A stretch of DNA of 64,000 nt from Raja brachyura (Eukaryota): positions 20,894,001 to 20,958,000 of the forward strand of contig OY740813.1 in NCBI GenBank assembly GCA_963514005.1, read 5' to 3'. Under the pieces are notes generated by a model, which had not been told where the DNA came from, made no database searches, and saw only the letters and a list, made by a program, of their open reading frames with translations. Positions 17,402 to 22,849 of this stretch are shown piece after piece. Positions within the stretch are counted from its first letter, which is position 1. The number at the start of each line of letters is the position of its first letter. The position numbers were made by a program, and so were the translations under genes.

Positions 17402-19594
17402 GTACCGCTACTCTTAACATAATAACGGGTGCATCGCTGGCCGCCAGACAGGCTGGCAAATAACTCGGCGCATATTAATGTGCAGATTTACAGTGTGGAA
17501 ACAAGCCCTTTGGCCCATCGAGTCCAGGCTCACCATTGATCACCCCTTCACGCTAGTTCTATGTTATCCTGAGCAGGCTTGGTCACTGGGTACATACAAG
17601 ACAGATATTGACAGATCTTTGGATATTAGTGCAAACAATAGACGATAGACAATAGGTGCAGGAGTAGCACCTCCATTCACTGTAATCATGGCTGATCATC
17701 CACATTCAGTACCCTGTTCCTGCCTTCTCACCATATCCCCTGACTCCACTATCTTTAAGAGCTCTATCTAACTCTCTCTTGAAAGCATCCAGAGAATTGG
17801 CCTCCGCTGCCTTCCACGGGTTCCATGGATTCACAACTGTCTGGGTAAAAAAGTTTTTCCTCATCTCCGTTCTAAATGGCATACCCGCTATTCTTAAACT
17901 GTGGCCCCCCTGGTTCTGGACTCCCCCAATATGGACATAAACAAGAGACATGGAGAGAAACACAAGAGACAGCATTGATTGAATTGGTTGACAGATACAG
18001 CATGGAAACCGGCCGCTCAGCCCTCGCCGACCTTCAATCACCCTTTCACACTTGTTCTATGCTAATCCTTTCTCATCTAGTGCTTACACACTGGGGACAA
18101 TTTGCAGAGGCCAATTAACCTATGAACCCATATGCCTGAGGGATTGGGACGACACTGAAGCACACGGAGGAAACCCACACTGTGTCACAGGGAGAACGTG
18201 CAAACTCCACACGGAGGTCAGGATTGAACCCGGTCTGTGGCATTGTGAGGTGGCAGTTCTACTTGCTGTGTCACTGTGCCTCCCAAAATTTGGACAAACA
18301 TTTTGGACTACAGAGATCCACTTAATAAATATGAACGGTGAATGCTGGGGCTACACTACAGGATGAGCAGCATCTGTGGGGAGAGAAACAGAGGAAACGT
18401 TTCAGATTGATATCGAGAGGATGGCCCAGTGATGCAGGTGGAAGAGTGGTTGTCTCCCAGTCTCTTTGACCCAGGTTCGATACCGACTTCATGTGCTATC
18501 AGTGTGGAGTTTGCACGTTCCCCCCCGTGACAGCGTTTGGTTTTTCCACCGTGTTGTTCAGTTTTCTCCCACATCCCAAAGACGTGCAGGTTGGAATCTG
18601 GGAGAGTTGATGGGAATGCAGGGAGAATTAAATGGGATCAGTGTAAAAGGATGCTTGATGGACAGTATGGATTTGGTTGGCCGAAGGGCCAGTTTCTGTG
18701 CTGCAGGGCTGCCAACATTGAGAGTTGGGAGTGAGAAATTGCGAGACCAAGCCCGAGGGAGCGTAGCGTAGTGTGGGGGGTGGGGGGGGGGGTGGGGGGG
18801 GGGGGGGGTGGGAGAGTGTTATCCCCCCTCCCATTGGTACGAAACGTTTGCATTTTTCTGCTTGAAATTGTGTAATATGGTGCATACTGTAGCGAGTCTT
18901 TTAACTTACACATGAATGCAATATATATGCTTTAAATTGGATTAGCTATGAATAAGGTTAGAGTGACTCCAGTTGCATACCTTCTCTCATTCATGACCCC
19001 GAGTCCAGTCCTACACCTGGCCCCCTATTCTACACTGATCATAGCTGCTTCGGTTCCCAGTGCTGAACACACCCCTGGTCCCAGCTTTGACTGCACACCT
19101 AGTACTATTCCAGACCTTGACTCTGGATGCACACTTGGCCTTGCTCCTAGCCCCTTTGCACTGACAATATATCTGGCCCACACATAAAGCCCCATATCTG
19201 ACCCCCTGGACTTAACCTATTATGTCCAAGTCCACAGGTGCTTAGCTAATGCAGTAATCCTTTATGGGGCACTTCACAGACCAAATTATGGATAACAAAA
19301 TTTGTGACATGCATTGGCTTCCTTGTTATCTAACGTGGTAGTCACTTTGTCAAAGAAGTCATCAATTGGTTGAACACAATTCCCATCCATAAAACTAAAC
19401 TCACTCAGCTGTATAAGTATTCTGATACCATTTCTTTCATTTTCGTAACAAACTGTCCTGAAGTCATCAGGCTAATTACAAATCAATAACATTAGCCAAC
19501 TCCAAAACATGAAGTGCTGAGCATTGGGATCCAAACATCATGGACAACTGGCCTCAGTTCCCCGCTCACATCCGGCAGTGTTCTCCATCTGAAC

Positions 19595-19830
19595 CAGGGG
19601 CCGCGGAGCGTTTTTGAAAGTGGGGAGGCTGAGCGATCACTGATCACTGGCCTTGGCGGTTCCTGGTGAGGGAGTGGAGCAACGGAGTGGGGAGAGGGTG
19701 TGAAAGAAGGGTGTCCCCCCTCCCAGGGTAGGAACTTTTTGAAATGCGATGTATTAAAATCATGTTTCAGTGCAATGTGGAAGTATGATTTAAATGTTTT
19801 TTGTATGAAGTATTTTTAAGAGGTAACTTT
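19595..19830 (+). mobile_element. probable end fragment of a second hAT-like non-autonomous element
   Basis: Begins CAGGGGCCGCGGAGCG. Its gggtgtcccccctccc...tttttgaaat architecture resembles 18750-18900. No matching other end found. Confidence 0.4.
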
Positions 19831-20560
19831 TTAAGGGGTAACTTTATCCACACCAAGGGTGGTGGGTGTTTGGAACAAGCTGCCAGAGGAGGTATTTGAG
19901 GCAGGGACCATCCCAACATTTAAGAAACAGTTAGACTGATACATGGATAGGACGGGTTTGGAGGTATGGACCAAAAGCAGGTAGCGCAGCTGGGACATGT
20001 TGGCGGGTGTGGGCAAGGTGTGCTGAAGGGCCTGTTTTCACACTGTATCACTCTATGACCACATTATACCTCCACCATGCATGAATGCTTCAAAATCAAG
20101 TGATTGAGTTTTATTGCCATATACTCAAGCATAGAAACTTAGAAAATAGGTGAAGGAATAGGCCATCGGCCCTTCGAGCAAGCACTGCTAATCAATATGA
20201 TCATGGCTATTAATCGAGAATCAGTACCTCTTTCCTGTTTATTCCCCATATCCCTTGATTTTGTGAGCTAAATGTAACTCTTTCTTGAAAACATCCAGTG
20301 AATTGGTCTGCACTGCCTTCTGTGGCAGAGAATTCCACAGATTCACAACTCTTTGTTTGTCCTCATCTCAGTTCTAACTACCCCCCCATCCCTTTATTCT
20401 TAAACTGTGACCCCTAGTTCTGAACTCCCCCAACATCGGGAACATTTTTCCTGCAGTTACAGTAAGTGAAAATCTAGCAGGCAAGCAGGATGCTTTCTCC
20501 AACCACCCCCATTTGAAGTCCACTATCTTCCACCGTTTCTACCCAGTGCCTGGTGCTTAC

Positions 20561-20820
20561 TTCCAGCAGCCACTGGTTGTCCTCCAGGATGCACGGAATT
20601 GTCCTCCAGGATGCACGGAACCGCAGCCTGATCCATGCCGGTCACCTGGGCGAATTTGGCACAGAGACACTCACGGCAGCGGCGCAACGCTTCCGACGCC
20701 TTGCACTGAGGCTGCTCCATGGCCGGAGCTGCAGTGAGCGACTCGCCAGCCCGGAAAACACTCGCTAGCCCCGCTCCCCGAATGAATCTGTCCCCGTCGC
20801 TGCTTCTGCTTCCAACTCCC
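20561..20820 (-). pseudogene. TDP2 exon-1-like fragment (UBA-like domain) with intact splice donor, transposon cargo
   Basis: After removing a 22-bp tandem duplication it reads MEQPQCKASEALRRCRECLCAKFAQVTGMDQAAVPCILEDNQWLLE|gtaagc. Compare recalled human TDP2 RRLLCVEFASVASCDAAVAQCFLAENDWEME at the end of exon 1. Confidence 0.7.
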
Positions 20821-20964
20821 ATGGCCCATGCAGTTGATATGAATTTTGAAATTTTCGTTGATCACAGAATTTCTCACGACAGAGCGTGAGAAATTTGTGA
20901 TCTGCGTGAGAATTTGACGAAATGCGTGATTCTCACGCTCAGTGCAAGGGAGTTGGCAGCCCTG

Positions 20965-21610
20965 CCTCTCTCTCTCCCTCCCCCTCTCTCTCTTCCCCCC
21001 TCTCTCTCCTCTGTCCCTCGCTCTCTCTCTCTCTCCACCTCTTTCTCTCCCCTCTCTCCCTCCCACCTCACTCTCATCCCTCTCTCTCTCCCCCTCTCAC
21101 CCCTCTCTCTCTCCCCCTCTCTCTCTCCCTCTCTCTCTCCCTCTCTCTCCCCCTTCCCTCTCCTCTCTCCCCCTCTCGCTCTTTCCCTCTCTCTCCCCGC
21201 TCTCCCCATCACTCTCCCCCTCTCTCTCCCCTTCCCCTCACCTCTTTCCCCTAACTCTCTCTCCACACTCTCTCTCTCTCGCTCTTCTCTCTCTTCCCCC
21301 ACCCTCTCTCGCCTCCTCTCTCCCCCACCTCACTCTCCCCTATTTCTTTCCCCCTTCCCCCTCTCTCTCTCTGTTCCCCCCTCTCTCCCATTCTCTCCTA
21401 CCCTCTTCACCCCCTCCCTCTTCCCTCTTTCTTCCCTCTCGCCTCTCTCTCTCTCTCTCTTCCCCCCTCCCCACCTCACTTTCTCCCCTCACCCTCTCTT
21501 TCTCTTCTCTCGCCCCATTCACCCCCCCCCCCCCCGCCGCCTCTCCCCTCTCTCTCCTCTCAACCCCTCTCTCCCCACTGTCTCCTTCCCCTCTCTCTCC
21601 ACCTCCCTTT
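20965..21610 (+). repeat. CT-rich polypyrimidine low-complexity tract
   Basis: About 650 bp of almost pure C/T between the two transposon-end copies. Confidence 0.92.
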
Positions 21611-21626
21611 GAGAGTCTCTGTCCCA

Positions 21627-21826
21627 TCGGCACAGAGACTCTCGCGGCAGCGGTGCAACGCTTCCGACGCCTCCGATCGGCCCGGGACTCTTGCACTGAG
21701 GCTGCTCCATGGCTGGAGCTGCAGTGAGCGACTCGCAGGCCCCGTTCGCGGCATCTGTCCCCTACAAACACTCGGCAGCCCGGGCTTTCCGTCCACATCT
21801 GTTCCCGCCGCTACATCTGCTTCCAT
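21627..21826 (-). pseudogene. second, truncated TDP2 exon-1-like copy
   Basis: Diverged direct repeat of 20659-20820 (MEADVAAG...SEASEALHRCRESLCA). It ends in a 12-bp fold-back hairpin. Confidence 0.55.
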
Positions 21827-22849
21827 CCCTCCCTCAGCCCCGGCTCTCCAACACCCGTGGACCATGCAGTTTATCTGAGGTTTGAATTTTTCGTTGATCA
21901 CAGAATTTCTCACCACAGAGCGTGAGACATTTCTGATCAGCGTGAGGGCGTGAGAGTTTCTTCAAATGCGTGATTCTCACGCTCAAAGCGTGAGAGTTGG
22001 CAGCCCTGGTGCTGTGTGACTGACAAAATAAATAGCAGGATAACCATTGAAGATGCCGAGTCAGGCCGTCCCTGTAGGTCAAGGGTGCCTTGATTCCACT
22101 TTGTGTCTGTGGTGACTGATGAGGCCAAATTGGGAGCCACAGATGTTGGCACGAGTAAGGCAGGTGATGCTGGGGGGCCTCTGGGACTCGGTGGTGTGGG
22201 TGGGCAGTGCGCTCATCCAAGGGGTAGGGGTGGGCCAGAGATCCCTAGGAGTCAATGACGGATGAGGGGGTTTGCATATCCTCCTGGGGTCTAGAAACAG
22301 GCCCGTTGGCCCAACTTGCCCACACCGGCCAACATGTCCCAGCTACACTAGTCCCACCTGCCGGTGCTTGGTCCTTATCCCTTCAAACTTGTCCTATCCA
22401 TGTACCTGTCTAACTGTTTCTTGAACATTGGGATAGTCCAACTCAACTACCTCCTCTGCCAGCTTGTTCCATACATACCACCCTTTGTGTGAAAAAGTTA
22501 CCCCTCAGATTCCTATTAAATCTTTTCCCCTTCACCTAGAACCCATGTCCTCTGGTCATCGATTCCCCTACTCTGGGCAGGACACTCAGTGCATCTATGC
22601 ACCTGTGCACCTGAAGAACTTTCCTCTATCCTTCTAGTCATCTCATCCCAAGCTGGGACTGGATATCTATCGCGATATTATGATCGTTCCTCCTCGCTAC
22701 CCATCCATCCCAGCACCGAGTCAGTAGTTCTAAATCTGTACGTCCTCTGTCAGTCACTGCTATATCAAAGGTACTCAGAATTACTGATGTTACCGGCTCA
22801 GCTGAGAGTACAAACTAGACGAGGCAGCAGGGGAGAGGGGTGCCCAGGA

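Follow-up and report, generated by a model that had tools for sequence, protein, structure and literature searches.

What introduced a 3.3-kb block with perfect inverted ends into an intron of a LIM-homeobox gene of the skate Raja brachyura, and how did the start of a second gene, TDP2, come to lie within it? The block occupies positions 18704-22008 of a 64,000-nucleotide stretch of DNA (the window; GenBank assembly GCA_963514005.1, contig OY740813.1, forward-strand positions 20,894,001 to 20,958,000). We conclude, with a probability of roughly 80%, that it is a single insertion of a high-copy terminal inverted repeat (TIR) element that has no transposase of its own, is likely of hAT type, and carries the 5' end of the host TDP2 gene as a genomic copy, cargo that an older TIR family likely passed on to it. 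The outer element itself probably did not capture TDP2; an older family making 5-bp target-site duplications (TSDs) probably carried it first.

The 13-bp TIR CAGGGCTGCCAAC is present exactly at 18704-18716 (plus strand) and 21996-22008 (minus strand), as described in an initial annotation made from the sequence alone, which overlooked a third exact copy at 20952-20964 (minus strand) that forms an internal right end, as well as a different TIR at 19595. A diverged direct repeat lies ∼300-380 bp ahead of each right end. The motif GTGCTG, also reported earlier, adjoins both outer ends (18698-18703 and 22009-22014), and is above chance expectation, with an exact 6-bp match in only 0.13% of permuted flank pairs. 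No open reading frame (ORF) of transposase length is listed inside the block, in agreement with the earlier observation, and Rfam gave no match in it. The CT tract (20965-21610), two pieces that we take to be of CR1 type, and two fragments of TDP2 exon 1 are all present as first described. The block sits in the intron splitting the homeodomain of a plus-strand LIM-homeobox gene (exons near 16441 and 27441), although the name LHX6, given previously, remains presumptive, a lookup having given no resolution. The flanks had been said to rejoin into one short interspersed element (SINE) tail. A 25-mer of the left flank has 21 other matches in the loci fetched from the genome (see below), nine of which then continue TATCTCTA; the window flank continues TGTGACTG, which is nearest to one single case among these matches, TATGACTC, and rejoining into one repeat tail is no more than plausible. 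Elsewhere in the window, a TIR look-alike at 30092-30104 has one mismatch and no subterminal DNA, and probably reflects chance.

The genome contains many relatives of this element. A first look gave 2,624 candidates for the right end and 1,630 for the left end, and a right-end 21-mer has 1,196 exact genome matches (control, 0). We fetched the surroundings of the 20 top matches to each end; interior segments of the window are present in all 40, at a median identity of 93-97%, and five tested segments are in the same order as in the window in 29. Together with the abundance of TDP2 exon 1 reported below, this overturns the description of the interior as unique DNA. These 40 loci are the best matches, so the sample favours the window's own subfamily. 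Among the first 30 right-end matches taken by position, 13 contain TDP2, eight and six represent two sibling types, and three are others. About 330 bp on the left and 90 bp on the right are common to the siblings and the outer family, whereas the interiors differ. Siblings of type X (L199:455-845, L210, L212, L214, L217, L222, L231, L233) have near the right end a GC-rich interior piece that resembles the first exon of another gene with a GTGAGT donor, facing inward as the TDP2 piece does; a search for its parent matched the shared left part rather than the GC-rich piece, and no parent was found. Type Y (L224, L198, and a nested copy in L094) has tandem right ends ∼900 bp apart, with CpG-rich promoter-like DNA beside the outer end.

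Tabulation of TSDs from both ends under a fixed rule recovered the two ends in 43 of 99 loci, with exact duplications of 6 bp in nine copies, 7 bp in 13, and 8 bp in one, a further 10 having one mismatch and 10 having none. Permuted flanks yielded no TSD in 98.9% of trials, against 23 exact and 10 one-mismatch duplications among the 43 copies. Dropped or mispaired under this rule were L070, L073, and the inner pair of L084, all with an exact 6 bp, and L086, with 8 bp and one mismatch. The 6-bp duplication claimed previously therefore holds for the window copy but not as a constant of the family, in which TSDs are 6-8 bp and most often 7 bp. Substitution cannot make an exact 6-bp duplication from one of 7 bp, and the mixture would thus reflect either variation in the cut or the loss of single bases at the junctions. 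TIRs at the two ends with a TSD, and multiple copies with distinct TSDs, are as expected of a Pack-TIR.

Identification of the cargo as TDP2 comes from matches to Pfam UBA_4 (E 2e-5), to TDP2 in PDB entry 6q00 (E 3e-4), and to little-skate TDP2 (76% identity). The host gene lies at C2:140267905-140287554, and its last exon is 96% identical to the little-skate protein. Window positions 19834-20820 align with its 5' end in reverse orientation and colinearly (89.5%; 726 matches, 85 mismatches), with both CR1-type pieces at their host positions. Because the splice donor, intron 1, and both CR1 pieces are kept, capture was at the DNA level with the CR1 pieces coming along, and we read the TDP2 block as a genomic copy of a single host locus and not a retrocopy. 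The captured 5' part is CpG-rich, with 62% GC and an observed-to-expected CpG ratio of 0.86, compared to 46% and 0.50 for the intron. No family terminus occurs with up to one mismatch in 30 kb of the host locus (C2:140254001-140284000), which speaks against a segmental duplication; a left-end copy is present at C2:140220474, ∼47 kb upstream of the gene. A 25-mer across the end of TDP2 exon 1 has 1,402 genome matches with at most two mismatches, the host gene included (control, 0), and all 17 exon hits that were inspected are in family context. Most copies keep an open exon-1 frame and the GT donor; in the window, the frame is broken by a 22-bp duplication and the exon copy is antisense to the LIM-homeobox gene. 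Four candidates for chimeric proteins beginning with the captured exon included none, albeit as a weak negative. A look for transcripts listed no RNA source, which speaks neither for nor against expression. The cargo is most likely a neutral passenger.

The second TIR provides a clue as to how TDP2 arrived. The segment at 19595-19830, the left end 'C', begins with a terminus (CAGGGGCCGCGGA...) unlike the outer TIR. Loci having this segment with a free left flank numbered five of 30 and then eight of 30, three being common to both samples; seven of the eight carry the TDP2 block, and several extend further into the host locus on both sides. Free copies have GGTTCCGCGGCCCATG at their other end, a sequence matched exactly at 119 places in the genome; of the first 30, 13 carry TDP2 and the rest have no TDP2 match. 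TSDs in 18 copies of this older family are exact 5-bp duplications in 10, have one mismatch in five, and are absent in three, and an exact 5 bp never arose in permutations; for the nine TDP2-bearing copies the corresponding numbers are four, three, and two. The older family (L361, L363, L366-L395) also includes TDP2-free members of ∼330-1,000 bp, some with other shared interiors, of which at least one (L366) adjoins an outer-family right end.

For nested intermediates the prediction, made beforehand, was that TGAAC would follow the inner right end. In L353, TGAAC stands on both sides of the inner element, and in L386-388 it is present on the right, while L298, L308, L342, and L345 have the same downstream DNA with the TGAAC duplication eroded. 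L397 and L387 together make a complete outer element with an 8-bp TSD surrounding an inner element. L366 has the unbroken target (the empty site) with ∼590 bp of the outer element's interior 'B' and an outer right end, and lacks the TDP2 element.

The outer copies can also be arranged by age. Old copies have one right end, ∼830 bp more of B, and a host-like exon stretch; young copies have a tandem right end and lack both of these, and the window copy is of the youngest form. In a tree, host TDP2 groups with old single-right-end copies (100/97, bootstrap unsettled), where a 'single' label means that the junction motif was not found and nothing more, and the young copies radiate as a star whose terminal branches measure about 0.02-0.04. 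Distances are 0.11 between host and copies, 0.078 among old copies, and 0.053 among young copies.

We propose that these forms are the stages of a relay. A family with termini CAGGGGCCGCGG and GGTTCCGCGGCCCATG and 5-bp TSDs came to hold ∼1.1 kb of TDP2 (upstream DNA, exon 1, the donor, and the start of intron 1), an end product that is observed directly and that would have arisen by DNA-level copying, probably through template switching or gap repair. A TDP2-bearing 5-bp element would then have inserted in the interior of a CAGGGCTGCCAAC-ended element, duplicating TGAAC; the nesting is observed, and the order of events is our reconstruction. Judging from the surviving forms, deletions would next have shortened the inner element, with loss of its right end, after which a second right end and a partial exon would have been added through the CT tract, and that form would have undergone a burst. 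Copies would have been moved in trans by a transposase, which we did not find, leaving duplications of 6, 7, and occasionally 8 bp.

Several observations weigh against this relay. Ten of 43 outer copies lack a TSD, the 1,402 exon-end matches were inspected only in part, and L386-388 are near-identical neighbours that count as one; no outer left end was found in L366, no orthologous empty-site joint appears among the minority of rows shown, and the searches for a transposase described below belong here too. Furthermore, the target motif is part of a repeat that matches the genome 4,966 times. The empty sequence is therefore common, and engulfment following insertion stays a minor rival. A 5-bp element would in that case have landed in ordinary DNA, and flanking outer ends would then have moved as a unit with no pre-existing element of left end, B, and right end, following the tandem-insertion model described for plant Pack-TYPE elements (PMC8903248, section 9). 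The recurrence of tandem right ends, in sibling type Y as well as the TDP2 form, would agree with this, but L366, albeit one truncated copy, fits an existing element as the target, and we consider engulfment unlikely. We regard as very unlikely that the two families captured TDP2 independently, or that the outer family was the first to do so and the source for the 5-bp family. Old and young outer copies are equally distant from the host (0.109 and 0.108), as such histories would allow, and the tree covers outer copies and the host without the 5-bp family. However, outer copies have the left end of the inner family built into them, more of the host DNA is present on either side in free 5-bp copies, and intermediates retain the inner right end and its TSD. 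That the block is ancestral intron DNA, or a misassembly bracketed by short repeats by chance, deserves almost no credence: no contig piece among those listed spans the whole block, and the empty-site joint is lacking as noted, but dozens of unlinked loci show the same structure, with a separate TSD at each, and contigs of three organism labels carry the right junction.

The autonomous partner with the same TIR that had been anticipated was not recovered. No transposase gene with either terminus was present at 60 distinct PF05699 loci (of 150 scored and 1,667 candidates, such that a minority was covered, with 20 top loci viewed only 1.5 kb to each side), and none of 15 PF21789 loci has a matching TIR within 1.5 kb. 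Among 289 ORFs from 40 loci, the 60 longest included no transposase with family ends; they matched reverse transcriptase, endonuclease, integrase, recombinase, and one ALKBH8_N domain. Among the loci viewed, L144, L148, L150, L153, L154, L160, and L163 represent a young hAT family with ∼99% identity, frames up to 793 aa, and different termini, which may have been recently active; a 700-aa transposase frame of P-element type, which has degenerate relatives, is present in L237 (C3:19711658). L201:2055-6771 and L217 have long frames for reverse transcriptase and tyrosine recombinase and are presumably DIRS-like.

We are reasonably confident that the outer family is of hAT type, given its short CAGGG termini, which we take to be hAT-like, its repeated subterminal motifs, and the position of hAT5 and hAT6 in one lineage. 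Its 13-bp TIR is within the hAT range, these being short, at 10-25 bp (PMC3942097). The canonical 8-bp TSD of hAT elements (Ac/Buster/Tip) is seen exactly in one of 43 outer copies, and the 6-bp TSD of hAT6 exactly in nine, versus 13 for 7 bp; the 5-bp TSD of hAT5 is seen in the inner family, exact or with one mismatch in 15 of 18. Six bp had been called a minority pattern for hAT elements, although names already exist for groups with 5-, 6-, and 7-bp TSDs and hAT5 and hAT6 are placed in one Blackjack-related lineage (PMC12730594, in its account of these groups). For assignment to hAT5 or hAT6, a published rule asks that termini match a classified Repbase entry over positions 1-11 (PMC4455052). 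It is improbable, and a matter of classification only, that a P-type (THAP9) transposase moved the outer family. Zebrafish Pdre2 likewise has a TIR of 13 bp, agreeing with ours at nine of 13 positions, and an 8-bp TSD (PMC10983969), and an element in a fish-like contig (L273) has one end of outer-family type and one of CATAG type; but no PF21789 locus of the 15 has a matching TIR, the modal TSD is 7 bp followed by 6 bp, and the shared hAT5/hAT6 lineage fits a 5-bp and a 6-7-bp family with CAGGG starts (PMC12730594). Dada does not fit, as the outer family has TIRs, unrelated targets, and no Rfam match, whereas Dada, as described in PMC3706591, makes a 6-7-bp TSD, is without TIRs, and inserts in small-RNA genes.

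Read from left to right, the window copy begins after the left TSD with the plus-strand left end 'A' (18704-18963; TIR and subterminal DNA), which is common to siblings with other interiors; ∼169 bp present after 18963 in most copies are missing here. B (18964-19594, plus strand) contains a Pro/Thr-rich frame with stops in most copies, and we rejected it as a host exon on account of these stops and of the absence of a protein homolog, which is weak evidence; its source locus was not found. B ends in a piece of another high-copy repeat (19561-19594; also L289, L357, and L062), the unclassified GC-rich repeat with 4,966 motif matches, which in places forms inverted pairs 300-500 bp apart. TGAAC at 19590-19594 would be the surviving left copy of the 5-bp TSD from the older element's insertion, both copies being present in L353 and a single one in L366. 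Segment C (19595-19830, plus strand) is shortened by deletion, and a short motif occurring twice at its junction with TDP2 (19816-19845) fits a microhomology deletion. The TDP2 block is on the minus strand and colinear with the host locus (L117 on C2), with the first part of intron 1 at 19834-20560 (CR1-type pieces 19834-20060 and 20127-20455, splice donor 20560-20555) and exon 1, encoding a UBA-like domain, at 20561-20820 (ATG 20720-20718); the 22-bp tandem duplication at 20577-20620 shifts its frame. The internal right end R1 (20821-20964, minus strand) is followed by the CT tract, which is common to young copies and variable in length, and by a second, partial TDP2 exon 1 with 5' untranslated region (UTR) at 21611-21860 (minus strand), which has a short foldback at its start and keeps a host-like stretch absent from the first fragment. 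The terminal right end R2 (21861-22008, minus strand), with repeated CTCACGC motifs and the TIR, precedes the right TSD.

Contigs of four organism labels cover the family, and the right junction is present on contigs of three; for organism D no listed contig extends over it, which carries no weight either way. Contigs of organisms B and C have 28 and 26 letters of the right end plus unique flank; these overlaps are below the 31-letter rule, and an insertion shared with B and C is therefore only suggested. Right end-like sequence also occurs in three metagenome-collection contigs; the fish-like one of these, a kinase-gene contig, contains the L273 element (L273:1936-2245, ∼310 bp). A scan of viral contigs gave 0 matches.

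The family is a multicopy Pack-TIR that is unusually large, has a variable TSD and a history through two families that can still be read, and far exceeds published animal cases in copy number. The initial proposal of a chondrichthyan Pack-TIR family that moves host DNA is borne out insofar as the TDP2 block derives from a host locus and siblings have other interiors; it needs revision in that the cargo is fixed and amplified more than 1,000-fold, the TSD is 6-8 bp, and TDP2 was probably captured by the older 5-bp-TSD family. Since intermediates survive in one genome, they show directly by what route the cargo passed between two families, and this route can be dated across skates. For the classification of non-autonomous elements the variable TSD is of relevance, and TDP2-bearing copies can mislead TDP2 annotation and read mapping. 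A more speculative and rather doubtful extension is that a clan of TIR elements in skate genomes takes up CpG-rich gene starts time and again and relays them between transposase families, that the ∼1,400 dispersed TDP2 first exons, many with an open frame and donor, serve as mobile first exons or promoters or are a source of small RNAs acting on TDP2, and that the transposase has a variable 6-8-bp stagger.

We found no account of this family in the literature, of which Repbase, Dfam, and most subscription journals were outside the search. Gene capture had been described as best known from plants, although Pack-TIRs have been reported in animals, where multicopy cases appear rare and low in copy number: the article on a survey of 100 genomes describes four in reference genomes (examples having three and five copies), with none in elephant shark, the only species found under chondrichthyan terms, and the word 'skate' absent from the main text (Tan et al. 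2021, PMC8277862). Of these, Pack-hAT-N8_XT, carrying the CAPSL 5' UTR, is alike in being a TIR element without a transposase that holds a GC-rich 5' piece of a gene, with a parent locus free of the element and dispersed copies with distinct TSDs; the skate family differs from the animal Pack-TIRs described there in its ∼1,400 copies and two successive carrier families. HelibatN3 of bats, which carries the NUBPL promoter, 5' UTR, exon 1, and part of intron 1, is similar in the kind of cargo and in reaching about a thousand copies in a vertebrate, but it is a rolling-circle Helitron whereas the skate element has TIRs and TSDs (PMC4224331); here a cut-and-paste element has amplified a first exon ∼thousandfold, as bat Helitrons do. 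The hAT5, hAT6, and hAT7 groups, the last of them fungal, share short TIRs with our families, a 5-bp TSD with the inner, and a 6- or 7-bp TSD with the outer, but are defined by a transposase and one TSD length (PMC12730594), whereas the outer family mixes 6, 7, and 8 bp and no transposase was found for it. The Pack-MULE, Pack-hAT, and Pack-CACTA elements of plants are similar in having common ends, varied interiors, and growth by fusion of neighbours (Gisby and Catoni 2022, PMC8903248). The plant hAT cases presented there have 8-bp TSDs, and the fusions described in section 9 are within one family; in contrast, the cargo in the skate crosses between families that differ in both TIR and TSD length.

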